In this document: piece after piece, positions 8,207 to 61,461 of the stretch
Position numbering within the stretch: the stretch's first letter is position 1
Layout: every line of letters starts with the position of its first letter
Source: an uncultured virus (IMG/VR IMGVR_UViG_3300047319_000243)
Lineage: Duplodnaviria > Heunggongvirae > Uroviricota > Caudoviricetes
Direction: 5' to 3' (one strand)
IMG/VR virus record: IMGVR_UViG_3300047319_000243
DNA: 64,000 nt
Notes under the pieces: generated by a model
Seen by the model: only the letters and a program-made list of their open reading frames with translations
The model's database searches: none
What the model was told of the DNA's origin: nothing
Made by a program: the position numbers and the translations under genes

Positions 8207-8235
8207 GGACAAACGGAGCGCCCCTCCGTTTGTCC
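8207..8235. repeat. 29-bp palindromic element, copy 1
   Basis: GGACAAACGGAG-cgccc-CTCCGTTTGTCC. Confidence 0.95.
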
Positions 8236-8257: not shown

Positions 8258-8605
8258 ATGTCCCGCATTATCACCGCCGATCGCCTCCAGCAGATCGCAG
8301 ACGCGCATGCAGCTGACCCCAACGCGCCCGGCCCTATCCTCGGGCAATTGATCATCGATGGCAACGTGCCGGTGGAAGCCGTCGCGCGCATGCTGCGCGT
8401 GTCCGATGTGACGATTTACCGCTGGATGTACGGCACCGCGCGCCCGCGCGATCAGGACAAACTCGCGAAGCTGGAGAAACTTCTCACGATTCTCCGCAAA
8501 GCCAAGCGGGCCAAGGAGTTGCCGCTCGCTGGCACCGTGCCACAGCGTATTAAGCTGGTTGAAAAGCTCATCATCGCCTACCGCCCGCTGCGCAGTCCGT
8601 CATAA
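8258..8605 (+). CDS. XRE/Cro-like HTH DNA-binding protein
   Basis: VEAVARMLRVSDVTIYRWMYG HTH; AGGAG RBS. Confidence 0.8.
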   Translation: MSRIITADRLQQIADAHAADPNAPGPILGQLIIDGNVPVEAVARMLRVSDVTIYRWMYGTARPRDQDKLAKLEKLLTILRKAKRAKELPLAGTVPQRIKLVEKLIIAYRPLRSPS

Positions 8606-12086: not shown

Positions 12087-12740
12087 ATGGTTATAACGAT
12101 TGCCAACCCGAAGGGTGGCGTGGGGAAAAGCGTGCTGGCTACGAACATCGCCGCAATAGCCGCCGCCCGTGGGCATAGCGTGACGTTCTTCGATACGGAC
12201 GTTCAGCGGAGTGGCGGCAAGTGGTGCGATCAGCGCAGAAACCTCGGCATCCGACCGCGCATCGACCTGCTCATCCCGAAAGACGACCTGTTCGACGAGT
12301 TGCAGGCGGCATCGCAGAGCAGCGATGTGGTCGTCGTGGACGTCAAGGGTACGGGCGGCCCTGCGCTGACTATTGCGGCTGGTTTGGCGGACCTCGTGGT
12401 GGTCCCGGTGATTCCCGGACAGTTCGAGGTATGGGCGCTCGACGACGCGGCCGACCTGATAGAGAGCCTGCGTGCCACGGGCGCGGGCTTCCGGTGCCGT
12501 GCCGTGATCAACAACGCGCCGACCACGCGTAACAGCCGCGACGTGCGCACCGTTACGGCCGCGCTGAAGGCGTACAAGCATTTCTTCGAGCCGTGCGACA
12601 CGGTGATCTTCGGGCGGCAGGTATTCAAGGACGCGTTGAGCGTCGGCCTGTCGGTGATCGAAATGGATGGCGGCGCACGCGACGTGAAGGCCACCGAGAA
12701 CATCAATACGTTTTTCAACGAGGCAATCAGCAATGGCTAA
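12087..12740 (+). CDS. parA: ParA partition ATPase (short, type Ib-like)
   Basis: Deviant Walker A KGGVGKS, DTDVQRS, VVVD, ADLVVVP. Confidence 0.93.
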   Translation: MVITIANPKGGVGKSVLATNIAAIAAARGHSVTFFDTDVQRSGGKWCDQRRNLGIRPRIDLLIPKDDLFDELQAASQSSDVVVVDVKGTGGPALTIAAGLADLVVVPVIPGQFEVWALDDAADLIESLRATGAGFRCRAVINNAPTTRNSRDVRTVTAALKAYKHFFEPCDTVIFGRQVFKDALSVGLSVIEMDGGARDVKATENINTFFNEAISNG

Positions 12741-13119
12741 GACACCCACACCCGGCATCCAACTCGGCGCGCGCGCCGCGCAACCGCCCGTCGACCGAGA
12801 CAAGCTGCTGGCCGCCGCACACAACGCCGAGCAGCCCAGTGTGGTGCCCGCGCCGCAACCCGTTCGACTGACAACCCCGCCGCCGGCCGAGCGCGCCGCG
12901 GAGCCGAAGGGGCGGACGATCGTATCGGTCGACGACTTGAGGGGCTTCGTGAAGAAGCGCGAGCCGCGCGTACCCATGACGATCCGCGTGCCGGTCAGCC
13001 TGTTCGACGATCTCCAGATGATCCAAAAGTTCGGGGGAAAGACGATGACCGACGTGCTGGTGGAGTCCGCCGCGCCTGTCGTTGCCGAACTCATGAAACG
13101 GATTGGGCAGAAAACATGA
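12733..13119 (+). CDS. Putative centromere-binding partner of ParA (C-terminal ribbon-helix-helix-like)
   Basis: Overlaps the parA stop; disordered N-terminus; PMTIRVPVSLFDDLQ...TMTDVL RHH-like pattern. Confidence 0.7.
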   Translation: MAKTPTPGIQLGARAAQPPVDRDKLLAAAHNAEQPSVVPAPQPVRLTTPPPAERAAEPKGRTIVSVDDLRGFVKKREPRVPMTIRVPVSLFDDLQMIQKFGGKTMTDVLVESAAPVVAELMKRIGQKT

Positions 13120-13709
13120 CCGAAGCCGAGACCACCGAGAAGGATGAGCTAGACGCCGACCTGCGCTGGCTCCACGTGTTCCACTCCATGATCGCCACGG
13201 GGGCACTGGCGAAAATGACGCCGTACGGGCTGGCGGTGTACATCGTGGTCAAGTACCACATCAACATCGCGGATGACCCCGACAAGTTCCCGACGATCGA
13301 TGTGATCGCCAAGGGCGCAGGTATGAGCGAGCGGAAGGTGAAAGACATGCTCAATCACCTAGAGTCGATGGGGTATCTCAAGCGAGCGCGGACGCAGGGC
13401 GGCAAACCGAACACGTACCAGCTGACGGAGCACGTACCGATAATGAAAAACGGGGAACCATACGCCAAGGCCGATTTCTCCCACCTGCCGTTCGAATGGC
13501 AAAAGCCGGTGGATGAACTGAAGGCGCTGCTTAAAAGCGGCGACCTCGACGGCAAACACATCCATCTGCACATTACGTTCAACCAGTTCAACGACCAGTC
13601 CACGCAGAACAACGCCGAAATGATCTTCAACGCGTTGAAAGACCCACAGCTGGCCGAGGCGATGCGCAAGCTGATCGAGAACCGCTCAGCGAAAGTCGCG
13701 GGCCTGTGA
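13116..13709 (+). CDS. Winged-HTH plasmid-type replication initiator (putative)
   Basis: LAVYIVVK...FPTIDVIAKGAGMSERKV...LESMGYL...NTY (HTH_36-like); followed directly by origin-like DNA. Confidence 0.7.
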   Translation: MTEAETTEKDELDADLRWLHVFHSMIATGALAKMTPYGLAVYIVVKYHINIADDPDKFPTIDVIAKGAGMSERKVKDMLNHLESMGYLKRARTQGGKPNTYQLTEHVPIMKNGEPYAKADFSHLPFEWQKPVDELKALLKSGDLDGKHIHLHITFNQFNDQSTQNNAEMIFNALKDPQLAEAMRKLIENRSAKVAGL

Positions 13710-47567: not shown

Positions 47568-48011
47568 TTATCCCAAGTTGAGAATGATGTTGAAGCCAGT
47601 GCCCGCGCTCGTGTCCTCGGCTTTCTTATCGAGTCCAGCCCAGCGGACGGTATCGGCGATGATCTTCTGGCGCACCGCATCGCTCGTACCGGGGTTCTGC
47701 GCCATCTTGAAGGCGGTTTCCAGATACGCCTCGGCCTGCAGGCGCGCCTTCACCTTGAAGCTCATGCCCTCGACTTTCAGGGCCTCCACGGCGTCTTGAA
47801 ACGCCTTGATGAATACCGGGTGCTTCACCAGTTCCTCGAACTGGGCGTGGGTCAGCCCGTAGGCGGCGCAGATGTTCTGCGGCGAATCCACCTTCATCGC
47901 CAGTTCGTACGGCAGCATCGGCGGGAACCCCATATCGATAGGGTTGCGCATGTCGACGTCTGTCAGACCGGGCAGATTGGGGGTTGGCGGCAGCGCCAGC
48001 GGGTTGTCCAT
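47568..48011 (-). CDS. terS: Terminase small subunit (putative)
   Basis: First gene of the late operon; N-terminal HTH-like region; C-terminal FNIILNL tail. Confidence 0.65.
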   Translation of the reverse strand: MDNPLALPPTPNLPGLTDVDMRNPIDMGFPPMLPYELAMKVDSPQNICAAYGLTHAQFEELVKHPVFIKAFQDAVEALKVEGMSFKVKARLQAEAYLETAFKMAQNPGTSDAVRQKIIADTVRWAGLDKKAEDTSAGTGFNIILNLG

Positions 48012-48298
48012 TACGCGGGAATCCTAACTAATTTGCGCCAAGCATATAGCAACACGGCCCCGCCGGGAAGTGTAAGTAAGAGGAATTTTTGGGGTGAGGT
48101 TTTTCGGGGGCGCGCGGTGGGTGGCTTAGTTTCTCGTCTGAGTGTAACTAAGTGGTTTTTGGCCGGATTCTATATGCGGGGCCATGGACGCGCTACCCCC
48201 CGGGCGTGCCTGAAACCCCCCCGGGGGGTGTCCGCTGGGGGAAAAGAATTACTGCCCGGCGGCGCGCGTGGCGCACGGCGCGCGGGCGTCAGGGCCGT

Positions 48299-48327
48299 TT
48301 GATATACAACGTGTTGTCAGGTAAATT
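48299..48327 (+). promoter_or_regulatory. Sigma70-like promoter for the early region
   Basis: TTGATA-17-TAAATT with ACAACGTGTTGT in the spacer. Confidence 0.5.
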
Positions 48328-48608
48328 CGAAGCGTAGTAGATGTTTTGTCGTAAGCAGTAGCGCAGTCCTATACGGTGATTCGCACGGCACGCCTAGCAG
48401 CGGACCAATACGCGATAGCCTGCGGACTACGCTACGCCGCTTGCGATGTTTCAGGGTGCACGGATAGGACCGGATTCGTTCTAGGTCCAATGCGGTGCAC
48501 GGAACCGAGCGTTTAACGGTTCCGTGCATGACTGACATTCCGTGCATGCTTTACGTGCGCACGCATAGTGCGTGCGCACGCTCTCTAACAATTCGGGGAA
48601 TATCACTC

Positions 48609-49289
48609 ATGGCAAGCAAAACCATCGTTTCGTCTGGCGCGGCTGTTATCGTTTCCGCATGGCACTACGGCATTGCCGATGCTTTCCAAGCCACCCTAAA
48701 GGCTAAGGACAAGGCACTGGCAATGGTGCGCAAGCAATACAGCGAACGCCCGACGTTCGATCAATACAAGCTCGATCTCGCCGCGCTGCAGTCCATCGCG
48801 GAAGAGAAAGGGCGTTCGTATGAATGGCTTCGCAAGTGCTACGCGAGCGCCATTGTCGAACTGTTTGAAGAGTTGCCCGTATCTGCCGACCCTGAAGCAT
48901 TGCGCAAGCGTGCTGAACGTGCGGCGAAAAAGGCACAACAAAAGCAGGTGTTGATCGATACGGGTCTAACGCAAAAGCCGAAAGATTGGGTTGATGTAGA
49001 AGTACCGGCGCAAGCCAAAACCAAGTCTAAGGCAGGTGCGCCGAAGGGTCAGACGCAGGAACAACCCGTCAACTATCAGGAAGGCTTAGAACAGTTCCTG
49101 ACGCGGCATGACACGTTTGAAGTTCTCGACGCACTGGCGCGTATTCTGGCGTCAGACAAGCAAACCGAGCTAGAGGCCGCCGGTCTGGCCAGCATTGCAA
49201 GCAAGCTTAGGCAGTCCATCAAACCGCGCGAAGTGAAGCAAACCGCAAAACGCACCACGCAGAACAACGCGAAGCAAAACGCAGCGTGA
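48609..49289 (+). CDS. Hypothetical early protein
   Basis: GGGGA RBS before ATG 48609 (MASKTIV). Confidence 0.75.
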   Translation: MASKTIVSSGAAVIVSAWHYGIADAFQATLKAKDKALAMVRKQYSERPTFDQYKLDLAALQSIAEEKGRSYEWLRKCYASAIVELFEELPVSADPEALRKRAERAAKKAQQKQVLIDTGLTQKPKDWVDVEVPAQAKTKSKAGAPKGQTQEQPVNYQEGLEQFLTRHDTFEVLDALARILASDKQTELEAAGLASIASKLRQSIKPREVKQTAKRTTQNNAKQNAA

Positions 49290-49299
49290 AGTAACCCTC

Positions 49300-49328
49300 G
49301 GACAAACGGAGTTGCCCTCCGTTTGTCC
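49300..49328. repeat. 29-bp palindromic element, copy 2
   Basis: GGACAAACGGAG-ttgcc-CTCCGTTTGTCC. Confidence 0.95.
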
Positions 49329-49353
49329 CTCAACGAGTTGAAAGGAAAACGCC

Positions 49354-49428
49354 ATGGAAATTTATCAATTGTTGATCATCCTATTCGGACAAGTTCTAAC
49401 CATTCTGGTTATGGCTCTCATGCGGTGA
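49354..49428 (+). CDS. 24-aa hydrophobic peptide
   Basis: AAAGGA RBS; MEIYQLLIILFGQVLTILVMALMR; terminator downstream. Confidence 0.6.
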   Translation: MEIYQLLIILFGQVLTILVMALMR

Positions 49429-49449
49429 TATTCCCCATAGTTTCATCTC

Positions 49450-49480
49450 GCCCGCTAGGTCAAGCCTAGCGGGCTTTTTT
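49450..49480 (+). terminator. Rho-independent terminator
   Basis: GCCCGCTAGG-tcaag-CCTAGCGGGC-TTTTTT. Confidence 0.9.
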
Positions 49481-49510
49481 GCGTCTGTGTTATCCATCCA
49501 ACGTGTTGTG

Positions 49511-49539
49511 GGACAAACGGAGTTTGCCTCCGTTTGTCC
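49511..49539. repeat. 29-bp palindromic element, copy 3
   Basis: GGACAAACGGAG-tttgc-CTCCGTTTGTCC. Confidence 0.95.
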
Positions 49540-50122
49540 GCGCGTCTCTCCATACCGCCTCGACGGTATCCGGTCTCACTGCCTAGCCAATAGCCTGTAC
49601 TGTTGGTTATCGGTCTCCCTACGTTGTAACTAAGAGATTCGTCTGGCTACAAACTCGCTTAGTTACGCAATTCCCGGAATAGCGACACTGTAAGGAACTG
49701 TAAGTAACTATCGGTTATTCCGCTTAGCCAATACCGGCGGGCTTCTCCAGCCGGTCTCATAGTTGCGTTACATTTGCTGGTGTAACCAGAGCTTATTGGT
49801 GCCAGACTCCATGTCCTTGTTTCCATTGGGGAATTGGTATCCAATAATCTGCTAATAAACTCATTAAACTCAAAAAGCAGGGTGATTTAGGCGATGTATA
49901 AAGTCGAATCCGAAGAGGCAGAGGCAGTAATTCTGCATACAAACAATCATTGAGGTGGTGTTACTGCCTCCACCGAATTACGTTTTCCCTGTTTGCGCCT
50001 CCTATCTCCGAAAACCTGCTTTTTGCGCTTTTTGCGCTTTTTCCCTTATAAATCAAGGCCCGAAAATTCCCATAGTTTCACCAGTTTGCTTAGTGCCTGC
50101 TTTTTAGGCGGCATTTCGTGGC

Positions 50123-50260
50123 TACCACCTCATAATGTGTGGAGGTGGTAACGGGCATAGACTCGCTATTCGTGAGGCTGTAGATAACGGATTCGTGAGG
50201 CAGTGAATACGTATCCGTGAGGCAGTAGTCCTTACCACCTCATAATGTGTGGAGGTGGTA
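50123..50260. repeat. Two identical 28-bp self-inverted repeats enclosing three iteron-like repeats
   Basis: TACCACCTCATAATGTGTGGAGGTGGTA at 50123-50150 and 50233-50260; ATYCGTGAGGCWGT at 50168, 50191 and 50213. Confidence 0.9.
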
Positions 50261-50344
50261 GAGAGGCGTGAACAGGCGCTCGCTGAGGCTGTACTGCCTC
50301 ATTGGTTATGTGTATGCTTCGGTTTCCTAACCAATCACTGCCTC

Positions 50345-50373
50345 GGACATTCGGAGTTGGCCTCCGTTTGTCC
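50345..50373. repeat. 29-bp palindromic element, copy 4
   Basis: GGACATTCGGAG-ttggc-CTCCGTTTGTCC. Confidence 0.95.
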
Positions 50374-50401
50374 GGCGCGACAACACGTTACTGCCTCTAC
50401 G

Positions 50402-50953
50402 ATGGCCTCTGCTCTAGACCTGAAAGGAAAGAAGTTCGGTGATCTCCACGCGATCGAACGATACGAGAACGACGACGCCGGCCGATCGCAGTGGGTTTGC
50501 ATCTGCGACTGTGGCGGGGCGCATATCGCCCGTGGGTCGTATCTGGTCGAGGGGCGCACGACGCGCTGCTCGACGTGCGTGAGAGCCGATGGCATTCGCA
50601 TCATCGTGTGGCACCACCTGTCTATCCACCGCTACGCAGACGGTGGCTTCGCCGATGGCTGTGCAGGCTTCTGTGAGGCGCTGCGCAACGGCAGCAGGGT
50701 GATCGAGCCGCTGTGGATCGATAAGGTGAGGCGCAAGCGCCATAGCCCGCCGATGCTGCTCGACACGCTGCGCAGGCTCGCCGCGGCGGGATACGTCAAG
50801 ACCAAGACGGACACCGCGTCGCTCACCTCATGGGCCAAGCGCAACGACCACAAGATCGAGTGGCACATCCACAACGAGGGCGACGCGGTGTGGGCAGCGT
50901 GGCACCAGCTGACAGGCGAGTGGCGCGGGCCGGCAGATCGCAAGCCCCAATAA
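50402..50953 (+). CDS. Protein with an N-terminal Cys-rich domain of the kind found in phage AP2/HNH-associated proteins
   Basis: DLKGKKFG.L...W.C.CDCG...L..G.T..C..C. Confidence 0.65.
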   Translation: MASALDLKGKKFGDLHAIERYENDDAGRSQWVCICDCGGAHIARGSYLVEGRTTRCSTCVRADGIRIIVWHHLSIHRYADGGFADGCAGFCEALRNGSRVIEPLWIDKVRRKRHSPPMLLDTLRRLAAAGYVKTKTDTASLTSWAKRNDHKIEWHIHNEGDAVWAAWHQLTGEWRGPADRKPQ

Positions 50954-51271
50954 CAGGTGATCGGGACACATCGCGTCTTGTCAATATTTGTCCCACGATT
51001 TACTCAAGTAATAGTTACATCCCCGTGCGCAGAAACTGCGCAAAAGCCTGTCAACCGAAAGCGAACTGCCGCGTTGCGCACACGTTTGCAATCTCGCAAG
51101 TGATTGATAGATAAGGCAAGACGGACTTGTAACTAAGCGTTAGAAAAGATTGCCAGAGGATTTACATCTTTTCAGATCTTTTTGTCTTGCGGTTCTTCAA
51201 TGCTCATTTCATAATGCAATCCACTGACCGGTTGGACAAGAAGCGAACACCCGGCAGCACAAATTACAGGC

Positions 51272-51300
51272 GGACAAACGGAGGCCGACTCCGTTTGTCC
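51272..51300. repeat. 29-bp palindromic element, copy 5
   Basis: GGACAAACGGAG-gccga-CTCCGTTTGTCC. Confidence 0.95.
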
Positions 51301-51336
51301 GGCACACAACGGCAGTACCCCACAAGGCGCACGGCA

Positions 51337-51657
51337 ATGAAAGTGGTGTTTAGCAAAGGCTTCCCGATCCCTAAAACCCGCTACGCTGGTATTGAGGACA
51401 TCGAAGCATTGGAGACAGAAGCGGAGAAGCGTTCGGTGATCGTGCAAGGCGTGCGCAACGTGCGCATGGTCGCCGGCAAGCTGACGCTGGAGTTTCACGA
51501 CCCGATCAACGCGTGCGTCGCGTGCACTGAACTCGGGTTCAAAGGCGCGGACAACGAGCGCACGGTTGATGTGCCGCTGCGCTATCGCGACGGCGTGCAT
51601 GCGGCGGCCGTGATCGGCAAGTATGCGTACAGCGACTACGAGATCAAGACGCGGTGA
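51337..51657 (+). CDS. Hypothetical protein
   Basis: ATG after repeat copy 5 (MKVVFSKG). Confidence 0.7.
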   Translation: MKVVFSKGFPIPKTRYAGIEDIEALETEAEKRSVIVQGVRNVRMVAGKLTLEFHDPINACVACTELGFKGADNERTVDVPLRYRDGVHAAAVIGKYAYSDYEIKTR

Positions 51658-51830
51658 TTGTGCGCAACAACGCGCGGTGGACGAGGCTCGCCACAGAGAC
51701 GCCGGGCAACGTGATGGTGACGTGTCGTGTGGGCTTCGACTTCAAGAGCGTGCGCACGGTGGCGGTGACGTATTGGCGCAGCAAACGCAACGGCAAGCGC
51801 TACTGCCACATATCACCGGGCAGGTACTGA
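51654..51830 (+). CDS. 58-aa basic hypothetical protein
   Basis: GTGA-coupled start; MIVRNNARWTRLATETPGNV... Confidence 0.5.
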   Translation: MIVRNNARWTRLATETPGNVMVTCRVGFDFKSVRTVAVTYWRSKRNGKRYCHISPGRY

Positions 51831-51866
51831 AGCCTTATCCCACAAGGGGTTGACCCACAAGACGAC

Positions 51867-51895
51867 TTGACAGTAATCCTAATTTGTGAGACAAT
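51867..51895 (+). promoter_or_regulatory. Sigma70 promoter
   Basis: TTGACA-17-GACAAT with an extended TGn before the -10. Confidence 0.65.
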
Positions 51896-51947
51896 ATAGG
51901 CGTTGGTGAAGGAAGGGCAGCAGTAGATGACAGGGCAGTAACGACGC

Positions 51948-51976
51948 GGACAATCGGAGGCCAACTCCGATTGTCC
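51948..51976. repeat. 29-bp palindromic element, copy 6
   Basis: GGACAATCGGAG-gccaa-CTCCGATTGTCC (symmetric variant). Confidence 0.95.
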
Positions 51977-52016
51977 GCTGTCACATCCAACGTGCAAAAC
52001 GCGGTACGCACGAGCC

Positions 52017-52045
52017 GGACAAACGGAGGGCAACTCCGAATGTCC
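52017..52045. repeat. 29-bp palindromic element, copy 7
   Basis: GGACAAACGGAG-ggcaa-CTCCGAATGTCC. Confidence 0.95.
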
Positions 52046-52074
52046 GAACACAAACGAGATAGAAGGAGCAGGAC

Positions 52075-52530
52075 ATGAACGAATCGATCTACATTGGGTC
52101 GTGGGACGATCTCAAGCTGTTCGGGATCAACGCGCTGACGGGTGAAGCGTGTGCATATGGGCGGCGTCTGCTGTGCGACGTGAACGAGGATGGCGCGGCG
52201 CTCATGCTCGACTATCTCGGCGTGACGATGCTGAGCAAGAACTGGAACAGCACGGTGGCAGGTAAGCCGGCGGTGGCCAGCGTCATGCTGCATCGCGACT
52301 CGTGCTTGCAGATCGCCGAGTTCGCATTGACGCGAGCGGGGGCGATCGCGATCCTGTATCGCAACGACGGCACCATGTCTGGCCTGTTCTCGCAGGAGTT
52401 GCTGAACAGCTATCAGCGCATGATGGCCGACAACGCGCCGGAAGGGTGGAAGCTGCTCACGCTGATTCGATCGAACGCGCCGCAGGAAGGCTCGCGCAAC
52501 GTGCACCAGTTCAGCGGCCGGAGCGTATGA
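52075..52530 (+). CDS. Hypothetical protein
   Basis: AAGGAG RBS; GINALTGEACAYG.RLLCD motif. Confidence 0.8.
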   Translation: MNESIYIGSWDDLKLFGINALTGEACAYGRRLLCDVNEDGAALMLDYLGVTMLSKNWNSTVAGKPAVASVMLHRDSCLQIAEFALTRAGAIAILYRNDGTMSGLFSQELLNSYQRMMADNAPEGWKLLTLIRSNAPQEGSRNVHQFSGRSV

Positions 52531-52533
52531 GCC

Positions 52534-52785
52534 ATGGTTGTCAGCAAGCGAGCACACGTGAACGTCGTGGCCGAGCGGCGCGATGCCGGCCAGCGCTACG
52601 TCTATCTGCAGATATCGAACGGCCTCACGTTCGAGTGGATACACGGGACGCAGGTTGTACGCACGAAGAAGTACCCGGAGCTTTCCAGTCCGATGCGAAC
52701 GCAGTTTGTAATCACGAAAGACAACCCGAGCATGCGCGACGTGAAAGACGCGTGCATGAACTACGCCAACGGCGTGCCGTACTAG
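52534..52785 (+). CDS. Hypothetical protein
   Basis: 83-aa ORF in operon. Confidence 0.65.
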   Translation: MVVSKRAHVNVVAERRDAGQRYVYLQISNGLTFEWIHGTQVVRTKKYPELSSPMRTQFVITKDNPSMRDVKDACMNYANGVPY

Positions 52786-52793
52786 GAGAGAGC

Positions 52794-52922
52794 ATGAGAA
52801 AGTTCGATGCGACCGAGTATCTGGACAGCGAGGAAATGATCGCTGCGTATGTGGAAGCAGCCCGCGAGACGGGCGACCCGGAACTGATCGCCGCCGTGCT
52901 GGCGGACGTGGCCAAGCAGTAA
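52794..52922 (+). CDS. 42-aa N-terminal fragment of an addiction-module antidote (HI1420/HigA-like) antitoxin
   Basis: AGGAGAG RBS; MRKFDATEYLDSEEMIAAYVEAARETGDPELIAAVLADVAKQ. Confidence 0.75.
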   Translation: MRKFDATEYLDSEEMIAAYVEAARETGDPELIAAVLADVAKQ

Positions 52923-52928
52923 CCAACC

Positions 52929-52957
52929 GGACAAACGGAGGCAGCCTCCGTTTGTCC
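52929..52957. repeat. 29-bp palindromic element, copy 8
   Basis: GGACAAACGGAG-gcagc-CTCCGTTTGTCC. Confidence 0.95.
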
Positions 52958-52986
52958 GAACATCAACGAGTGAAAAGGAGAGCAGC

Positions 52987-53592
52987 ATGAGCAAGCGTTA
53001 CCGTGATGCGTTCGCAATTCAGCAGGGCGCATGCAACCCCATCGCAATCGTCAACTCGCTGAAGTCTGCGATCGACGAACTGCGCGCCGAGAACGCAGGC
53101 ACCGACGAGATCAACGGCGACATGGCCGTGCGTGCGATGGTGCATCAGCTGGCGCACCTGACCAGCATCCAGTACTTCGATCAGACGGCATACGAGGCGA
53201 TGATGCAGCGCGTCGAGTCGGGCAAGGTGGCCGAGATCAAGGCACAGCAGGCGCTCAACGCACAGATCGACGCGGCTGTTGATGCCAATCTGCAACCCGT
53301 GTTCGGCAAGAAGGTGCCCGCTGGTTGGGACAAGATCGAAGCCGATACGCCTGTGTTCGTCAAGCGTGCGCTTGAGTCGTACCAGTACCTGCCCACGTAT
53401 GCGAAGGTGGCGATCGAACGGCTCGATGCAGATAGCACGTTGCGCCGGGGCCTCATGCTCGAAACGTTGCTTGAGTCGTACGCCAAGACGTACGGCATGG
53501 AGGTGGAAGATCACATCCGTGCGTCGGCGCATCACATCTGTCTGCGTCGCTTTCCCGACTACGCGCCGTTGATCGTCAAGAGCGAGGACTGA
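52987..53592 (+). CDS. Hypothetical protein
   Basis: AAGGAG RBS; 201 aa. Confidence 0.8.
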   Translation: MSKRYRDAFAIQQGACNPIAIVNSLKSAIDELRAENAGTDEINGDMAVRAMVHQLAHLTSIQYFDQTAYEAMMQRVESGKVAEIKAQQALNAQIDAAVDANLQPVFGKKVPAGWDKIEADTPVFVKRALESYQYLPTYAKVAIERLDADSTLRRGLMLETLLESYAKTYGMEVEDHIRASAHHICLRRFPDYAPLIVKSED

Positions 53593-53593
53593 C

Positions 53594-54169
53594 ATGAGCC
53601 GCGTCTTTGTGTATGCCCGTGTGTCGACGGTCGATCAGACGACTGACAACCAGCTGCGCGAGATCGAGGGCGCAGGGTTCAAGGTCGAGCCTCGCCGCAC
53701 TGTGGCCGAGAGCATATCGGGCAGCGTGGCAGCGAACGAGAGGCCCGGGTTCAGCAAGTTGATGGATAAGCTTGAGTCGGGCGACGTGCTCGTGGTGACG
53801 AAGCTTGACCGCCTCGGCCGCAATGCCATGGATGTGCGAGCAACCGTCACGGCGCTGGCCACGATGGGCGTGCGTGTGCATTGCTTGGCGTTGGGTGGCG
53901 TCGATCTCACTAGCCCCGCGGGCAAGATGACGATGGGCGTGATCGCATCGGTCGCTGAGTTCGAACGTGATCTGCTGATCGAGCGAACGAACGCAGGCTT
54001 AGACCGTGCACGTGCGCAAGGGGCCAAGTTCGGCCGACCGTCAGCGCTGAGTGCGACGCAGCAGGCTGAGGCACTGAAGCGGCTGAGCGCAGGCGAGAAC
54101 GTGTCGCAGCTGGCACGTGAGTACAAGACGAGCCGCACAACCATACAGCGGCTGAGAGATAAGCAGTAA
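53594..54169 (+). CDS. Small serine recombinase (resolvase/invertase family)
   Basis: YARVST catalytic Ser, KLDRLGR, AEFERDL..ERT..G, GRP, C-terminal HTH. Confidence 0.96.
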   Translation: MSRVFVYARVSTVDQTTDNQLREIEGAGFKVEPRRTVAESISGSVAANERPGFSKLMDKLESGDVLVVTKLDRLGRNAMDVRATVTALATMGVRVHCLALGGVDLTSPAGKMTMGVIASVAEFERDLLIERTNAGLDRARAQGAKFGRPSALSATQQAEALKRLSAGENVSQLAREYKTSRTTIQRLRDKQ

Positions 54170-54176
54170 CCAACCC

Positions 54177-54205
54177 GGACAAACGGAGGCCGACTCCGTT
54201 TGTCC
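54177..54205. repeat. 29-bp palindromic element, copy 9
   Basis: GGACAAACGGAG-gccga-CTCCGTTTGTCC. Confidence 0.95.
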
Positions 54206-54227
54206 ACCAACGAGTGGAGAGGAAAGC

Positions 54228-54638
54228 ATGAGCGCATGGGTATGTAGTGAGTTGCACATCAACACGCTGGCCACGTATCTCGCGGCGCGTGAGATCGAGG
54301 TCGAGTGGCAGGGTGGCACGTTCAAGTGCATCGAACAGCCGGCGAACGTGGCCAGCATCTTGATGACCGAGAACGTGAAGTCGGTGAACTATCGCTACGA
54401 CGAGAACGATATGCCGAGCATGACGTATGCACTGGCACACATCCCCGATCCGATCCCGATGTACAAGCTGATCGGCTGCTATACGTATCAGGCGTGTGAG
54501 CATCCGGGATGGGAGCAGTCACTTGCCAAGCTGTTGTGTGATGCGGGCGAGCACCACATCGAGGCGCAGCTGGGCAAGACGCAGGATCAGATTCAGAAAA
54601 CGCGTGACTGGAACGACGCACCTTGGGGGATTGACTAA
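54228..54638 (+). CDS. Conserved phage hypothetical protein
   Basis: EN.KSVNYRY...CY.YQACEH..W..S.A...W..APWG. Confidence 0.8.
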   Translation: MSAWVCSELHINTLATYLAAREIEVEWQGGTFKCIEQPANVASILMTENVKSVNYRYDENDMPSMTYALAHIPDPIPMYKLIGCYTYQACEHPGWEQSLAKLLCDAGEHHIEAQLGKTQDQIQKTRDWNDAPWGID

Positions 54639-54675
54639 TGAAAACCGACCGTAGTGCGTGCGTAGGGGGTGCGGC

Positions 54676-54870
54676 ATGAGCCAACAACCGGTATCGGATG
54701 GACTGGCCGGCGACATTGCCGACTTTCTCGTAGAACTATCGCTGTGCTATAGCCGCGATGGCGAGTTCAATCACTTCACCGCGCAGATCGGCACGGTGGA
54801 AATCCGCGAGAGAGCAATCGAACTGGCGAAGCAGTTGGGCGTCCAGTTCCCTGACGAGGACGAAGCATGA
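54676..54870 (+). CDS. Hypothetical protein
   Basis: GGGGG RBS; coupled to the next gene. Confidence 0.6.
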   Translation: MSQQPVSDGLAGDIADFLVELSLCYSRDGEFNHFTAQIGTVEIRERAIELAKQLGVQFPDEDEA

Positions 54871-55106
54871 GCACAAAGGTAAAGGTGGAACTGACGCCGC
54901 AGGGCGGCATCGATCTGGTCGAGGCGCACCTGAAGCATGAGCCGGAAGGCTTCTGGTTCAACGTCAATCAGGCTGGCCGCGTCGGCACGGGCAAGGCCGC
55001 TGAGTTGGAACTGAGCATCGGTGGTGCCGAACAGGGCACCTTCATCGTGCTGAATGCCGATGGTACGTGGAGGATGACGACAGAGGTCTACGTCGCAGTC
55101 AACTAA
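54867..55106 (+). CDS. Hypothetical protein
   Basis: ATGA coupling; GAGGA RBS. Confidence 0.7.
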   Translation: MSTKVKVELTPQGGIDLVEAHLKHEPEGFWFNVNQAGRVGTGKAAELELSIGGAEQGTFIVLNADGTWRMTTEVYVAVN

Positions 55107-55116
55107 GCAGTACCCC

Positions 55117-55145
55117 GGACAAACGGAGGCTGACTCCGTTTGTCC
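55117..55145. repeat. 29-bp palindromic element, copy 10
   Basis: GGACAAACGGAG-gctga-CTCCGTTTGTCC. Confidence 0.95.
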
Positions 55146-55169
55146 TCAACGTGTTGAAAGGAGAGTGCC

Positions 55170-55571
55170 ATGCAGTACAAGCTCAAGCATGACTGCCCGC
55201 GTTGCGAGGGCAAGAAGGTCCAGCTGTGCGGTGTCAACGAGGTGGCGTTCAAGGGCGTTACTGCCACGTTCGAGGGTGTTTGTGTAGCGTGCGGGATGTA
55301 CGTACATACACAGCGCCGGGCCGGCGTGGGCGTGATGCGCAGCTGGAGCGGCGACGGCCGCCTGCTCTACAAGTGGGTCTACAACGGCCGCATCACGAAG
55401 GTCAGCATCGCGGTGCCTTTCAGCATGATGCAGTACGGCGAGACGGAGTTCATGCTCGGCAACGTGAAGCTCAAGCTTATCCATCGCTTTCGCACCTTCA
55501 CCGGTCTGCTGCCCGAGTCGTGGCTAATTGACATCAGCGGCGAAGTCGTTGACGCGGTGGAAACCCTTTAG
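55170..55571 (+). CDS. Hypothetical protein with CxxC...CxxC zinc ribbon
   Basis: CPRC...CVAC; AAGGAG RBS. Confidence 0.75.
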   Translation: MQYKLKHDCPRCEGKKVQLCGVNEVAFKGVTATFEGVCVACGMYVHTQRRAGVGVMRSWSGDGRLLYKWVYNGRITKVSIAVPFSMMQYGETEFMLGNVKLKLIHRFRTFTGLLPESWLIDISGEVVDAVETL

Positions 55572-55584
55572 TTACAAGGGATTG

Positions 55585-55611
55585 TACAATATGTCAGTCA
55601 ATTCTGACTGA
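55585..55611 (+). promoter_or_regulatory. -10-like TACAAT followed by an operator-like palindrome
   Basis: TACAAT (55585-55590); TCAGTCA-attc-TGACTGA (55594-55611) directly before the AGGAGG RBS. Confidence 0.5.
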
Positions 55612-55625
55612 TAGGAGGTAAGAGA

Positions 55626-57104
55626 ATGGCGCAGTATGCTCCCCAAGCCCGCAAGCGAGCGGTTACTCATCGCGAGCAATCCGGGAATATCTATTGGACG
55701 CAGGCTGAGAAGAAGCAGGTAGCCGACGAAGCGTTCTATAGGTTACAGCGAGATAAGTCGTTATCCAGCATAGAAGCGATCGAGCAGGCACAGCGCAAGA
55801 CGCTGCCAAAGAATCGCCAGCGTGAGGGGTTAGCGCACATCGGGTTCGCGAAGTTCAAGCCATGGATCGAGCCGTTGTGGCATGAGATCGGCGAGAAGCA
55901 GGGCAAGCAGGCGAATGCGCGGGTGCAAGCTGAGCAGCTATTCCTTACCAGTCCCCCCGAGCCGCAGCCGGCACAGGAGCCAGCTGCACCGGAACCCGAA
56001 GCACAGAACGAGAACGAAGAAATGGCGGCGAACAACCCTCAAGAGATTCAGACCGTAGTTGGCGCGGCATTGGCGGCGGCCATGGACAAGAAAGGTGCGG
56101 ACAAGATAGCGACCAAGCCGAACCCACCGGGCAAACATGGCGGCTCACGCAAGATGCCGGAGAAGATCACCCGCTGGACGAACGACGAACGAGTATGGTT
56201 TATCACCCGTGTCGATGCGCTACGTGCTGAGGACACGATGCTATCGCTTACTCGGGCAGCGCATCGAGCCAACGCGGAAATGCCGCCAGAGAGACAGCGC
56301 ACAAGCACCGATTGGAGTTGGGCGAACATAGCGCCGTGGGCCGACAACATGCTCAAGATCGCCAAGTCCGAACGCATGGCGCGCGAGCACAAGGCACAGC
56401 AGGATGCGGAAGCAGCGCGCCAAGCGGCTGAGTCGGCCGAGGCAAGGGCGAAGGCTGAGCAGGCTGAGATCGATGCGGCTATTGCCAACAACACCGAAGC
56501 GCTCGAAGCCCGCGAGCGAGAGATCGAGGCGCGCATCGATGCGGAGGTTGCGGCACGAGTGGCAGCAGCTGAGGCGCGTTTGCGAGAGCAGCAGGTGAGC
56601 CGCCCGCTTGAGGGGATCATCCAGCTGTTTGCGGATAGGTTTGCTGAGGTGGCGGTCAAGTCGTTTGCAGGTGCGATCAACCGAGCAGTCTCGGACCAGA
56701 TGATGGCGATGCGCATTGATGCGGCAGTGCCAACGCCGCGAGTGGCTACGCCTGTTGAGAAAGCCATTGCGCCGCCACGTGAGCGACTGCCCAAGGTGTG
56801 CGTGGTTGGGCTGATCAACCAGCAGGAGCAGGACGTGAAGCGAGCGTTCGAGGACACGATCGACTTCGTGTTCGTGAAGTCGCAGACGCAAGGCGGCAGC
56901 GGTGGGCACGGTGGCGCGGGCATGCTGGCCAAGGCGAACAGCTGCGACATCGTGGCGTGTATGACTGACTTCGTAGGTCACGACGTTGAGTGGGCAGCCA
57001 AGAAGCTGAACATCCCATACTACCGAGTCAACGGCTCTGTGTCGGGCCTCAAAAGATGGCTGACCGAGTGGCTGACTGGAGAGTATTCAGGGAACGGAGG
57101 ATAA
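55626..57104 (+). CDS. Multidomain protein: two WT..E helical repeats, coiled coil, C-terminal DUF2325-like domain
   Basis: YWTQAEK and RWTNDER repeats; CDIVACMTDFVGH...AKKLNIPY...GSVSGL. Confidence 0.75.
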   Translation: MAQYAPQARKRAVTHREQSGNIYWTQAEKKQVADEAFYRLQRDKSLSSIEAIEQAQRKTLPKNRQREGLAHIGFAKFKPWIEPLWHEIGEKQGKQANARVQAEQLFLTSPPEPQPAQEPAAPEPEAQNENEEMAANNPQEIQTVVGAALAAAMDKKGADKIATKPNPPGKHGGSRKMPEKITRWTNDERVWFITRVDALRAEDTMLSLTRAAHRANAEMPPERQRTSTDWSWANIAPWADNMLKIAKSERMAREHKAQQDAEAARQAAESAEARAKAEQAEIDAAIANNTEALEAREREIEARIDAEVAARVAAAEARLREQQVSRPLEGIIQLFADRFAEVAVKSFAGAINRAVSDQMMAMRIDAAVPTPRVATPVEKAIAPPRERLPKVCVVGLINQQEQDVKRAFEDTIDFVFVKSQTQGGSGGHGGAGMLAKANSCDIVACMTDFVGHDVEWAAKKLNIPYYRVNGSVSGLKRWLTEWLTGEYSGNGG

Positions 57105-57222
57105 TAGTTACTGTTGTAAATCAGTGCGTTCGTCGAGTGGTCCGTGGGCGGGGCCACGCCGATAATTCAAGTTCGGTCATCGACAAATGCTGCCGTATGC
57201 AAGCGGCGAACGCACTGACCCC

Positions 57223-57251
57223 GGACAAACGGAGGCCGACTCCGAATGTCC
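57223..57251. repeat. 29-bp palindromic element, copy 11
   Basis: GGACAAACGGAG-gccga-CTCCGAATGTCC. Confidence 0.95.
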
Positions 57252-57275
57252 TTAACGTGATGAAAGGAGATCGAC

Positions 57276-57911
57276 ATGGAAGCAGTAGCCATGGGAGAAA
57301 AGACGGAGTTCAAGTTCAGCGAACTCTCTGAGAAAGCGAAGCAGACCGCGCGTGACTGGTATCGCGAATGCGTGTCGCAGGATTGGGAACCGGACCTCGA
57401 CGACGCCGCCACGTGCCTGAGCTATCTCGGGTTCGAGGTGAACAAGGAAAGCTACTCCACGCGAGTCGGCACACGGCAGCGCTGGGCGATCAGCTACTCG
57501 ATCGGCTACTGCCAGAGCGACTTTGCCGACTTCGCCGCTGAATGGAAGGCCGAGGCGATCGACATGGCCGGACTTCTGGCGTATGCACCGATCGACACGG
57601 AACTCCACAAAATGTGTGCTCGTGCGATGGCGCTCATGCTGCGCCATCCGCTTGCTGTTGGTGCGGTTAGGCGGCGCAATCATGGCGGCTCCGAATGCGA
57701 GTACGCATACCGTAACCCCGACGATGGGCAAGCTGTCGATGATGTGGACTTCGCGTTGCAGCACGATCTCGAAGCCATTGCCAAGGACATATGCGCTTGG
57801 CTGTACAAGCAGTTGAGGGATGAGTACGAGTATCAGACCAGCGACGAGCAGGTGATCGAAGGCATCGAGGCCAACGAATACGACTTCGACGAGGATGGCG
57901 AACGCGTATGA
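57276..57911 (+). CDS. Acidic conserved phage/plasmid protein (family often labelled 'antitoxin of TA stability system')
   Basis: F.ELSE.AK..AR.WY...YAP.DTELH...WLY.QL..EYEY.TSDE....I.ANEY.F...G. Confidence 0.75.
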   Translation: MEAVAMGEKTEFKFSELSEKAKQTARDWYRECVSQDWEPDLDDAATCLSYLGFEVNKESYSTRVGTRQRWAISYSIGYCQSDFADFAAEWKAEAIDMAGLLAYAPIDTELHKMCARAMALMLRHPLAVGAVRRRNHGGSECEYAYRNPDDGQAVDDVDFALQHDLEAIAKDICAWLYKQLRDEYEYQTSDEQVIEGIEANEYDFDEDGERV

Positions 57912-58186
57912 GCCGCACGTTTGTTACCGCCCGGCTCTACTGGATCAACGAGGCTGAGGGCGAGGGGCATTACGTCGACGGCGGCGAATCCATCGAGATC
58001 GTGACAGCGCCCATCGACTTCGCCACGGCTGAGGCGCATGTGCAGCTAGGCGGCGAGGCGGCGGTGTTTGATCCCAAGCAGAATGGCGCGATTGAAGTGT
58101 TCGATAGTGGGTGGGGGCCGCTGTTCTCGGGCCTGTGGGAAGGCTGTACTTTTCACGTACTTGTTAGGAGGATCGAGAGTGATTAA
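57908..58186 (+). CDS. Hypothetical protein
   Basis: ATGA coupling. Confidence 0.7.
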   Translation: MSRTFVTARLYWINEAEGEGHYVDGGESIEIVTAPIDFATAEAHVQLGGEAAVFDPKQNGAIEVFDSGWGPLFSGLWEGCTFHVLVRRIESD

Positions 58187-58448
58187 CGCTCACAAGCTGT
58201 TCAAGAGCCTGCGTGATGCAGGCATGGACGAGAGGCAGGCCGACGCATTCGCCGCAGCGATCGACGACTTCATGCGCGAGGACATCGCGACGAAGGGTGA
58301 CGTAGCGGCGGTGCGCGCTGACATCACACTGGCCGTCGAGCAGGTGAAGTCGCACACGTGGCAGACATGCCTCACCGTTTGCGGCGCGGTCGGTGTGATC
58401 CAGATCGGCGTGATCTATGCCCTGATCGAACGCCTCATTGCTAGGTAA
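58179..58448 (+). CDS. DUF1640/CCDC90-like coiled-coil membrane protein
   Basis: AGGAGG RBS and GTG; L.DAGM.E.QA.A....IATKGD; C-terminal TM. Confidence 0.75.
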   Translation: MINAHKLFKSLRDAGMDERQADAFAAAIDDFMREDIATKGDVAAVRADITLAVEQVKSHTWQTCLTVCGAVGVIQIGVIYALIERLIAR

Positions 58449-58454
58449 ACAGCC

Positions 58455-58778
58455 ATGATGCGAGAGGACATGATTGCCACACTCGGCGCAGACGTACACG
58501 AGTTGACGGCCAGCAAGATGTTCGAGCGCGGCGACATGGCATGGAAGTTCGCGCGCCGTGTAGTGATCCGCGCCGAGCCGGTGTCGTACCGTGCAGCGAT
58601 GACGCACCTGAAACTGGCTGAGCCGCAAGGCATGGTGGTGAAGGCGCGGCGCGGCCCCAAGGGCGGATGGATCGGTGCGACGTACACGCAAGAGATAACC
58701 CGACCGCTGCCGAAGGGTAGCCCGTGGGCATGGTACATCGTGGTCAAGGTGGTGCCCCGTACTACCCCGCAGAAGTAG
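58455..58778 (+). CDS. Hypothetical protein
   Basis: 107-aa ORF in operon. Confidence 0.65.
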   Translation: MMREDMIATLGADVHELTASKMFERGDMAWKFARRVVIRAEPVSYRAAMTHLKLAEPQGMVVKARRGPKGGWIGATYTQEITRPLPKGSPWAWYIVVKVVPRTTPQK

Positions 58779-58794
58779 TGTCGTTTTTTGTACG

Positions 58795-58831
58795 TAGAAT
58801 CGTTAGCGATTCTAACTAATGCAGTTATAAT
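58795..58831 (+). promoter_or_regulatory. Promoter with overlapping palindrome
   Basis: TTAGCG-17-TATAAT; TAGAATCG-ttag-CGATTCTA covers the -35. Confidence 0.5.
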
Positions 58832-58851
58832 TCACGTGAGGAAAGGAAACC

Positions 58852-60060
58852 ATGAGTCTGCGTAATTCGACCCTGTTGTATCGCCCGGCCCTGTCTGTCT
58901 GGACCGCTCGCAAGCTGGACAAGACGCAGAGCGTTCTCGTCGCGCACAACGCTGACGCCAAGGAAGGCGTGGCGAACGTGCACAAGAACCTGTTGCCCGA
59001 GTGCAAGGAACTGGAGGACGTGACCAAGTGGGCCACGCAGTTCCGCACGTTCATCTACACGTCGACGCTGCCGTGGGATGACAGCGGATGGCGCATCGGG
59101 CAGGTGGCGCGCCACATGGAGTTCATGCAGGAGATCGGCGACCGCATCAATCTCGGCAACCTGTTGGTGGATGCGCTCATGCGTGTCTATCAGTCGCGCG
59201 TCGAGGACGCCAAGTTCACGCTCAACAAGATGTTCAACCCGATGGACTATCCGAGTGTGCAAGAGGTGCGCTCGCGGTTCTCGTTCGCGGTGAGCGTGAT
59301 GCCGATGCCGGCGGCGTCGGACTTCCGCGCGGTCGAGGGTATCCCGAAGGCCGAGGTTGAGAAGCTGGAGAAAGCGGCGGCCGAGGCAGTCGAGCAGCGC
59401 ATCGCCGAGGCCATGAAGGAAGCGTACGAGCGGCTGTATGAAGTGGTGGCGGCCATGGCCAACACGCTCGACGGGTACGACGGCGGCACGATCAAGAAAT
59501 TCAACGACTCGTTGGTAGGTAACATCGCCAAGATCGTGAAGGTCATGCCGGCGCTGAACTTGACGAACGACCCGAAGCTCGCAGCGCTGGCGAGCGACGC
59601 CGAGGAACTGGCGAACTATGCGGCCATGGACTTGCGTCAGCACGCGCCGACTCGTGAGGCAGCGATCAACGAGGCGCGCAAGCTGCAGATGAAGTTCAAG
59701 GGGTCGATCGCAGCATCCCTGCCGGCCACGGGCGATACGAAGGTGAAGGCCCCGAAGATCAAGGCCGGGCCGCGACCGGCGCAGAAGGCGACGCCAGTCG
59801 GCACGAAGGCGATCGAGCAGGCCAAGGCGGCGGTGAAGAAAGCCCCGGCGAAGAAGGCAGCACCTGCGCCGACGCCCGCGCAGAAGAAGGTCGCGAAGAA
59901 GGTGGTTGAAGAAACGCTGAAGAAGTTGGCAGATAAGAAAGCGCCGGCACCGAAGCGCCCGGCTCAGAGGAAGCCGACCGTAGTGGCTGAGGCGGCGGTG
60001 GCGCGCGTGCAGCAGGCGGCCGATCCGAAGGCCCTGTTCGGCGACATGATGGACATGTAA
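58852..60060 (+). CDS. DUF3150-like protein with Lys/Ala/Pro-rich tail
   Basis: W.ARK.D...TLPW.D.G.R...YPS..EVR.RF...LNLTNDP.L; upstream of AAA/VWA genes. Confidence 0.7.
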   Translation: MSLRNSTLLYRPALSVWTARKLDKTQSVLVAHNADAKEGVANVHKNLLPECKELEDVTKWATQFRTFIYTSTLPWDDSGWRIGQVARHMEFMQEIGDRINLGNLLVDALMRVYQSRVEDAKFTLNKMFNPMDYPSVQEVRSRFSFAVSVMPMPAASDFRAVEGIPKAEVEKLEKAAAEAVEQRIAEAMKEAYERLYEVVAAMANTLDGYDGGTIKKFNDSLVGNIAKIVKVMPALNLTNDPKLAALASDAEELANYAAMDLRQHAPTREAAINEARKLQMKFKGSIAASLPATGDTKVKAPKIKAGPRPAQKATPVGTKAIEQAKAAVKKAPAKKAAPAPTPAQKKVAKKVVEETLKKLADKKAPAPKRPAQRKPTVVAEAAVARVQQAADPKALFGDMMDM

Positions 60061-60068
60061 GAAAAGAT

Positions 60069-60097
60069 GGACAAACGGAGGCAGACTCCGTTTGTCC
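60069..60097. repeat. 29-bp palindromic element, copy 12
   Basis: GGACAAACGGAG-gcaga-CTCCGTTTGTCC. Confidence 0.95.
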
Positions 60098-60138
60098 GAA
60101 CCACTTCTACCCAACGAGATTAAAGGATAACACCAATC

Positions 60139-61254: not shown

Positions 61255-61257
61255 TCG

Positions 61258-61461
61258 ATGCCTAAGTTCAAGGTGCAAGTAGACAAGCTCACCGTCTACG
61301 AGTTGGAGGTGGAGGCCGACACGCGGGAAGCCGCGTGCTCGGTCGGCGCGAAGCTCATCGAGGCGATGGGCGATGGGCGTGTGTACCACCGCAAAGAGTC
61401 GTATCCATACGAGGCGAATTTTGCCGAGGAAGTAAAACCGAAAACGCGGGGGAAGGAATGA
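61258..61461 (+). CDS. Small hypothetical protein
   Basis: KFKV.V......EVEADT.EAA. Confidence 0.65.
   Translation: MPKFKVQVDKLTVYELEVEADTREAACSVGAKLIEAMGDGRVYHRKESYPYEANFAEEVKPKTRGKE

Follow-up and report, generated by a model that had tools for sequence, protein, structure and literature searches.

The c repressor of the Streptomyces phage phiC31 has palindromic operators that are conserved in many intergenic regions, one of them tied to autoregulation; these sites are shorter than those described here, and the protein is not known to be related to our candidate. The stoperators of Cluster A mycobacteriophages (L5, TipsytheTRex) are 13-bp, asymmetric and orientation-dependent, and are bound by a monomeric repressor with an HTH and a Stoperator domain, which terminates elongation and gives immunity when bound (PMC9283540, PMC6550527). 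Phage P1, a plasmid-state phage, has about 22 dispersed C1 operators, 17-bp and asymmetric, together with autoregulation and a wider immunity system that includes an antisense RNA (PMC8546580). T4-type PeSL elements consist of a sigma70 promoter and a terminator stem-loop and drive gene shuffling (PMC2839356).

We compared these systems with a palindrome dispersed through a 64,000-nucleotide stretch of DNA (the window) from an uncultured Caudoviricetes virus (IMGVR_UViG_3300047319_000243). This stretch appears to span almost the whole of a 64,402-bp contig. As in Cluster A, each genome has numerous sites, which lie in promoter regions and in narrow gaps between genes, the site motif diverges between relatives along with the (here putative) repressor, and a plasmid-maintenance module recalls the plasmid prophages of some Cluster A members (PMC9283540, PMC6550527). 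Unlike Cluster A, the site is a symmetric palindrome of 29-31 bp used in either orientation, and the candidate protein is modelled as a homodimer, with no sequence or fold match to the Cluster A repressor among the matches listed. The plasmid state, the dispersed sites, the possible autoregulation and a complementary RNA stretch resemble the P1 system, from which the site differs in length and symmetry (PMC8546580); no C1 homology of the candidate was found (no PHROG or Pfam match). PeSLs, too, are units repeated between the genes of an early region whose gene content varies (PMC2839356). Unlike PeSLs, the sites contain neither promoter nor coding-strand T-run terminator and gene order is kept: no plus-strand terminator was found at the 11 copies scanned, promoter-like matches fall outside the palindrome unit at varying distance, and gene gains, losses and swaps are not concentrated at the units. 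A CI-type S24 peptidase is absent from 5/5 records searched and from the window, and neither candidate nor window has the HTH_3 plus S24 Pfam matches of a lambda CI-type repressor. The array is most likely a stoperator-like network in which a previously undescribed protein recognises symmetric sites of 29-31 bp.

Palindromic sites in the window and its relatives

All 12 palindromes of the original prediction are present as exact matches at the coordinates it gave (Table 1). No extra copies occur in the window at up to 3 mismatches, no lone half-sites were found, and 100 dinucleotide shuffles of the window contained none. Every copy (12/12) is intergenic in our gene calls and has a 5-bp core; as had been described, the core reads GSNRM in copies 5-12 and is reversed in copies 2-4 (copy 1 is neither), and arm variation is uncompensated in copies 4, 7 and 11. 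Copies 1, 2, 8, 9, 10 and 12 do lie shortly after a stop codon, at 9, 10, 6, 7, 10 and 8 bp respectively, a range of 6-10 bp in place of the 7-11 bp proposed. The flanking words exist but are looser than had been implied, with RAGTA/GCAGTA upstream of 5/12 copies and AACGWG downstream of 8/12. The downstream AAC-NN-GTY-AGGAG leader is a motif separate from the palindrome, since relatives carry it without one. Copy 3 and its flank form an inverted version of the copy-2 unit (I1, 64 nt, 75% complementary).

Table 1. Coordinates of sites and associated features in the window
Feature	Position	Strand	Remarks
Site copy 1	8207..8235		before HTH gene 8258 and primase operon; same place in relative G002
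Site copy 2	49300..49328		10 bp past candidate regulator stop; before small ORF and anti-RBS stretch
Site copy 3	49511..49539		directly after terminator
Site copy 4	50345..50373		centre flipped vs G002 ortholog (8 mismatches unflipped, 1 when flipped)
Site copy 5	51272..51300		sigma70-like match at 51187 upstream
Site copy 6	51948..51976		sigma70-like match at 51867-51895 upstream
Site copy 7	52017..52045		copies 6 and 7 correspond to one site in G002
Site copy 8	52929..52957		between stop and RBS
Site copy 9	54177..54205		stop/RBS gap; centre flipped vs G002 (3 vs 1 mismatches)
Site copy 10	55117..55145		stop/RBS gap; centre is exact reverse complement of G002 ortholog
Site copy 11	57223..57251		exact motif match
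Site copy 12	60069..60097		before ATPase/DUF2201 genes
Candidate binding protein (226 aa, first early gene)	48609..49289	+	no family in Pfam or PHROG; co-variation with site at residues 66-80
Sigma70-like match upstream of candidate regulator	48299..48327	+	consensus match only
RBS region of candidate regulator	48595..48606	+	target of complementary stretch
24-codon hydrophobic ORF	49354..49428	+	strong RBS; G002 counterpart 26 codons
Exact 12-nt complement of regulator RBS	49425..49436	+	14-nt compensated version in G002
Intrinsic terminator-like hairpin and T run	49450..49480	+	also in G002
Serine resolvase/invertase	53594..54169	+	rejected as enzyme of site
ParA, partner, winged-helix rep-like gene (plasmid-state module)	12087..13709	+	no site in front; rejected as binder
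HTH gene behind copy 1	8258..8605	+	likely target; rejected as binder

Sites were found in all nine complete genomes (window included), and 74 were kept after 5 low-scoring matrix matches were dropped. Each of the eight complete relatives carries 6-11 copies of its own version of the motif ahead of early genes. Across the clade the site is 29-31 bp long and symmetric, its centre occurs in either orientation, and its outer GACA..TGTC is fixed while the inner part is phage-specific; G002 has exactly the site of the window. A host-element origin was rejected: a relaxed pattern gave 27 single matches in genome_contigs and 31 in metagenome_contigs, and none of these contigs was nucleotide-like to the window.

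A candidate binding protein encoded by the first early gene

Among 33 core families, motif distance is tracked by that of gene 48609-49289 alone (r 0.66, p 0.0005; next-best family r 0.28, core mean -0.17), and on this comparative sequence evidence its product is the best candidate for a protein that binds the palindrome. Co-variation is strongest over residues 66-80 (r 0.81-0.89; family-wise permutation p 0.002), with none in the C-terminal part. Reducing the four genomes that share the QWVRKPY type to one lowers the residue-window correlation to 0.50-0.57 over six genomes. QWVRKPY may be the ancestral type; its helix is paired with a TGGTY site in four further contigs (L133-L135, found by protein, and L148, found by motif), of which L133 and L135 are not independent because they resemble G008 and G007. 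In 7/9 genomes the homolog of gene 48609-49289 is preceded by a site at a distance of 75-210 bp; the window and G002 have none upstream of the regulator gene. In G006 (one record, 67% complete) another gene occupies the regulator slot and just two degenerate, relic sites are found.

The candidate is predicted to form a helical homodimer with a score of 0.70 (best of 3 controls, 0.00), above a mark reached by 20/30 solved homodimers and 1/23 single chains; at least 48% of contacts were common to the runs, with pLDDT of at least 63. Residues 73-78 fall in the predicted interface, and the geometry of the dimer may therefore account for some of the co-variation. The protein has no PHROG, Pfam or PDB-sequence match among the matches listed. 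Foldseek gave no match at E 0.001 for the whole candidate or its N-domain, which proves nothing, because monomer models were searched and the predicted dimer is intertwined; the best VIA match (Z 6.5, rmsd 2.7-2.8, 75 aligned) is an unrelated helical bundle. In the Atlas, only unnamed viral clusters match at 0.9 or above. DUF3102, at 0.81-0.83, is a lead only. The family comprises 119 representatives at E up to 0.001; searches of 50,697 phage records and 72,556 plasmid records gave no match. One homolog is annotated Burkholderia. Among the papers listed by literature searches, titles and abstract starts describe neither the motif nor the family, which supplements of metagenomic phage catalogues might mention.

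The original proposal for EMSA listed four proteins, none of which is the best candidate, and did not name gene 48609-49289. The resolvase, ParA and the HTH gene 8258 were set aside as binders because they are missing from site-bearing relatives. The HTH gene, which lies behind copy 1 and is missing in site-bearing G004, is likely a target rather than a binder.

Probable role of the palindromes and its alternatives

The palindromes are probably operators of the homodimeric 48609-49289 product, at which it would lower early and replication transcription. The evidence favours the repressor or stoperator network that had been one option of the original prediction. Each half-site would present two recognised blocks, GACA and the phage-specific inner block, separated by two loosely specified bases, and the protein would occupy 6-12 sites across the early and replication transcription units. 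Bound in leaders and between genes it would block elongation, and at a site adjoining the regulator promoter it would act on its own promoter. Comparison of the genomes shows the sites, with their form and position across the clade, arms that do not covary as a stem, and sites that co-vary and co-occur with the protein. We infer binding, repression rather than activation, action as a roadblock, and a role in lysogeny. In this phage, with its plasmid-maintenance module, repression would keep the prophage silent and confer immunity; where relatives have no lysogeny module, the protein would time early-gene shut-off. The lysogeny role is weakened by G004, G005, G007, G008 and G009, which have neither tyrosine integrase nor ParA.

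The same protein and sites might instead activate transcription by recruiting host RNA polymerase, or bridge sites and so help fold or eject the DNA that enters first, which we consider unlikely. All co-variation evidence is compatible with any function, the regulator gene opens the early region and persists in relatives that have no lysogeny module, and in four genomes the upstream site lies 3-11 bp before a -35-like box and could equally be an activator site. Most sites, however, follow promoter-like matches at a distance of tens of bases (sigma70-like matches are not enriched over shuffles, 5 vs 4.5) or in stop/RBS gaps too short for a promoter, and 6/74 fall inside plus-strand ORFs in our gene calls. 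N4-like virion RNA polymerase promoters were also considered and found no support: no PDB sequence matches the 2275-aa virion protein, in which the catalytic words searched for are absent.

The headline of the original prediction, that the palindromes are portable, PeSL-like cassette joints at which genes are captured, deleted or shuffled by site-specific or homologous recombination from copy to copy, is very unlikely to be correct. Two gene insertions that separate the window from G002 do adjoin a site (behind the copy 8 leader and before copy 9), the gene before copy 8 is replaced, the window has one additional copy, and 3/11 orthologous centres are flipped, for which neutral inversion by template switching is the best reading; incidental recombination can use repeats of 30-60 bp as substrates. 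Some breakpoints thus adjoin sites and others do not: genes have also been gained and lost in the middle of units (51661-51835, 54638, 57325-58774). Gene order is kept, with 14/1908 shared gene-pair orders swapped, and all shared early genes remain on one strand. Lineage-specific genes are depleted directly after a site (15/42 vs 81/130 elsewhere, p 0.004) and not enriched before one.

Neither recombinase family co-occurs with the site across the clade. The serine resolvase, put forward as the enzyme, was found only in the window and G002; it and tyrosine recombinase are each absent from 5/5 records searched, and G004, G005, G007 and G008 carry sites with neither family. Cores differ between copies, in contrast to the common central crossover of serine and tyrosine recombination sites. 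Among the joints listed (all but 9) from assembled contigs of four sequencing runs, contigs that drop rare products, those at sites came only from X4; their intervening letters match a G002-like strain, so they are mapping artefacts. Likeness to integron attC was rejected, as the upstream AAC is not conserved and most carriers have no integrase. A likeness to resolvase half-sites was rejected on its opposite orientation and on absence of the enzyme in relatives.

That the palindrome acts as an RNA hairpin in processing, stability or translation control of a polycistronic early transcript is highly improbable. Most copies in the window sit between stop and RBS and fold as a 12-bp stem without mismatches (roughly -15 to -22 kcal/mol), but in relatives the arms vary independently and without G-U strand bias, some copies fold at merely -4 to -8 kcal/mol, and centres occur in both orientations. 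Over the 62 sites outside the window and G002, pairing at arm positions 6-8 was 21/19.2, 25/25.1 and 33/35.2 (observed/expected under independent draws), and G-U and A-C mismatches stood at 44 to 45; neither the arm covariation nor the G-U bias on the transcribed strand of a structured RNA is seen. Rfam returned nothing at gathering level across 47900-61300. The original preference for a dsDNA protein-binding site over an RNA stem is supported.

A dispersed centromere of the N15 type, another original option, has next to no chance of being right: the window does encode ParA and a small partner, but ParA was found only there, in G002 (27% identical, yet with an identical site) and in G010, and is missing from six complete site-bearing genomes.

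A proposed feedback switch and its implications

Behind copy 49300, an RNA stretch is complementary to the RBS of the regulator's own gene, with compensated changes in G002, and this suggests a feedback switch. If the 48609-49289 product is bound, copy 49300 would end the regulator transcript before the anti-RBS stretch, leaving the message translatable (positive feedback); if unbound, read-through RNA would silence the regulator and yield a small membrane peptide. The helix of residues 66-80 and the inner site block would form a swappable specificity code across the clade. We offer only tentatively, as a composite that may well not hold in full, a one-protein lysis-lysogeny switch that unites a new DNA-binding fold, an early-operon roadblock, RBS feedback at copy 49300 and this code.

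Purely by comparison, an unannotated phage protein family has been paired with a specific DNA site and a candidate specificity helix has been singled out, and the compensated anti-RBS stretch makes the feedback mechanism directly testable. If binding is confirmed, the family would be a new repressor family, probably with a new DNA-binding fold, and would mean that stoperator-like control arose independently a second time, in phages for which one homolog is annotated Burkholderia. Its operator-repressor pairs, long and mutually distinct, would also form a set available from nature.

Palindromic sites in the window and its relatives

The window covers almost an entire phage genome (a 64,402-bp contig). 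The plus strand carries the early and replication genes and the minus strand those for the virion; ParA with a rep-like gene and a serine resolvase are also encoded. Its capsid protein shares 45% with that of the closest named phage, and the sequencing runs that contain this DNA are rhizosphere metagenomes. An ATPase homolog bears a Burkholderia label.

A search for the palindrome pattern revealed 12 exact matches in the window and none in 100 shuffles; near matches and lone half-sites were absent from the window. The spacing, core polarity and three uncompensated copies described in the original prediction were reproduced to within one base, and the dispersed palindrome is a real feature of the window. 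An ATPase alignment yielded 14 viral loci, and ten records were taken whole. Using per-genome matrices, we found 6–11 sites in each of eight complete relatives, after dropping five low-scoring hits (one in the relative G002 and four in G007, one of these within a minus-strand gene) and one hit in G006, which is 67% complete. The outer GACA..TGTC is invariant, total length is 29–32 bp across genomes, and the inner block varies by genome (CGGAG, CCGCG, YGGTY, YGTTG, YGGTA or CCGG). Of the 74 sites retained, none falls within the minus-strand genes, which make up about half of each genome, and six fall within plus-strand ORFs according to the simple gene calls made here.

Features of the window and related loci (window positions unless a locus is named)
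Feature	Position	Observation
Virion-region protein	22431-29258	2275 aa; without Pfam or PDB sequence match
Swappable lifestyle module after primase	11800-14400	ParA + rep-like gene; same slot in G003 (tyrosine integrase) and G010 (TrfA + ParA, two H-NS-like genes)
G/C-run hairpin, then conserved AAAAGAATTACT word	48185-48250	Between presumed small terminase and early region; could be a packaging or end signal
Candidate regulator gene	48609-49289 (+)	226 aa; first early gene
Candidate regulator's first residues	48648-48707	Dense strain differences (sequencing runs X2-X4); helix forming predicted dimer interface
Leader repeats AAC-NN-GTY-AGGAG	e.g. 49331, 55147	Ahead of early genes, palindrome present or not; resemble start-associated sequence
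Same leader, G006	L108:12112-12450	Short tandem array
Hydrophobic ORF, anti-RBS stretch, terminator	49354-49480	Resemble dual-function small RNA; peptide could be membrane toxin, exclusion factor or regulator
Eight GAGGCWGT-type words	49921-50396	Non-coding; with next row, missing from corresponding place in G002 and other relatives
Second palindrome, 28 bp	50123-50150, 50233-50260	Two identical copies; with GAGGCWGT stretch, possible origin or second regulator site
42-aa ORF	52794-52922	Resembles N-terminus of addiction-module antidote (PF21716); not found in relatives searched

A candidate binding protein

All nine complete genomes with sites encode the candidate regulator gene, which is flanked by sites and diverges fast (26–37% outside G002). 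It was chosen on presence, after which 33 core families (at least 8 members each, one merged family omitted) were tested; it alone tracked motif distance (r = 0.66, p = 0.0005; r = 0.64, p = 0.0015 without G002). The co-variation is local to residues 66–80 (r = 0.81–0.89, family-wise p = 0.002), a correlation that falls to 0.50–0.57 once four like genomes are collapsed to one. Contigs outside the first test agree with this pairing: three found by protein (L133-L135) carry TGGTY sites. A scan for the TGGTY pattern returned 20 loci on 6 contigs, five from this clade and one an unrelated single hit, and the one new contig among them (L148) encodes the helix expected for such sites. In G006, an unrelated gene occupies the regulator slot and two relic sites are present.

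The AlphaFold model is helical and confident (pLDDT 90), with conserved basic residues on helix 71–86. The predicted homodimer, with its interface in the N-terminal domain, scores 0.70 (contact agreement at least 48%, pLDDT at least 63), a mark attained by 20/30 solved homodimers and 1/23 single chains; three controls gave 0.00 at best. The palindromes are probably operators at which the predicted homodimeric product would lower early and replication transcription.

P1 C1 is described with 22 dispersed, asymmetric 17-bp operators (PMC8546580), and Cluster A stoperator motifs are reported to diverge together with their repressors (PMC6550527). The proposed action would resemble both systems as those accounts present them, but site symmetry sets the candidate apart from either class; homology to P1 C1 or Cluster A repressors was not detected.

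Recombination and RNA readings

Some differences between the window and G002 adjoin sites, and incidental recombination there is therefore possible. Site centres are flipped in 3/11 orthologous pairs; in yeast, a polymerase that switches templates from one short inverted repeat to the other is reported to invert spacers and homogenise arms (PMC8604942), and the same presumably happens here. The original prediction offered, as one of several readings, that the sites are cassette joints, with the resolvase (53594-54169) as candidate enzyme. In relatives, gains and losses are not concentrated behind sites: lineage-specific genes are rarer directly after sites (15/42) than elsewhere (81/130), and the order of shared early genes (14 of 1,908 pairs swapped) and their strand are kept, which argues against joints. 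The resolvase, confined to the window and G002, was found in 0/5 records by profile search, as was tyrosine recombinase (0/5), and drops out as the site's enzyme. ParA occurs in three genomes (the window, G002 and G010), and the HTH gene (8258-8605) is missing from G004. An RNA stem is very unlikely: at the 62 sites in genomes other than the window and G002, complementarity at arm positions 6–8 does not exceed the independent-draw level and G-U and A-C mismatches are about equally frequent (44 versus 45); the near-perfect hairpins of the window are a special case within the clade. Identity as a PeSL was rejected on comparison with the elements as described in PMC2839356.

Site placement and proposed action of the regulator

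Sites recur beside the regulator's own promoter (upstream site in 7/9 genomes; four upstream sites 3–11 bp ahead of a −35-like box), tens of bases downstream of promoter-like matches, and inside operons in the stop-to-RBS interval; these promoter calls are consensus matches with no enrichment over shuffles. Placements behind promoter-like matches or between stop and RBS are suited to an elongation roadblock, as has been proposed for stoperators (PMC9283540), and the candidate regulator bound at leader and intergenic sites would block transcript elongation.

In the window and G002, the candidate regulator gene has no upstream site and one 10–11 bp downstream. Behind that site come a short hydrophobic ORF, an anti-RBS stretch complementary to the gene's own RBS, and a terminator. 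The two genomes have different versions of this RBS, and the complement changes along with it (12 nt in the window, 14 nt in G002, both exact); equally long complements were found for 0/46 and 0/50 control gene starts. Duplex energies are −27.6 and −28.6 kcal/mol for cognate pairs and −23.6 and −21.0 kcal/mol for crossed pairs. The anti-RBS stretch is missing from the remaining seven genomes. A roadblock at copy 49300 would exclude this stretch from the regulator message, and we infer positive feedback in these two related genomes.

The window's parA module has no site in front. Tyrosine integrase was found in G003 and G006 (99/154 candidate ORFs scanned), and neither lifestyle module was seen in G005, G007, G008 or G009. 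As these modules vary among genomes, lysogeny is likely one use of the regulator and its sites, and early shut-off during the lytic cycle another.

In the more distant G012, G013 and G014, the corresponding places hold palindromes of another kind (11 copies in each of the first two and 5 in G014), and their first early gene is another gene: that of G012 has only weak C-terminal likeness to the candidate regulator (E = 0.0015, probability 16%), and that of G014 has none. In distant relatives (loci L138, L139 and L140), the dispersed palindromes differ and have a 1–2 bp centre that can face either way; the first genes differ too, and these would be further candidate regulator-site pairs.
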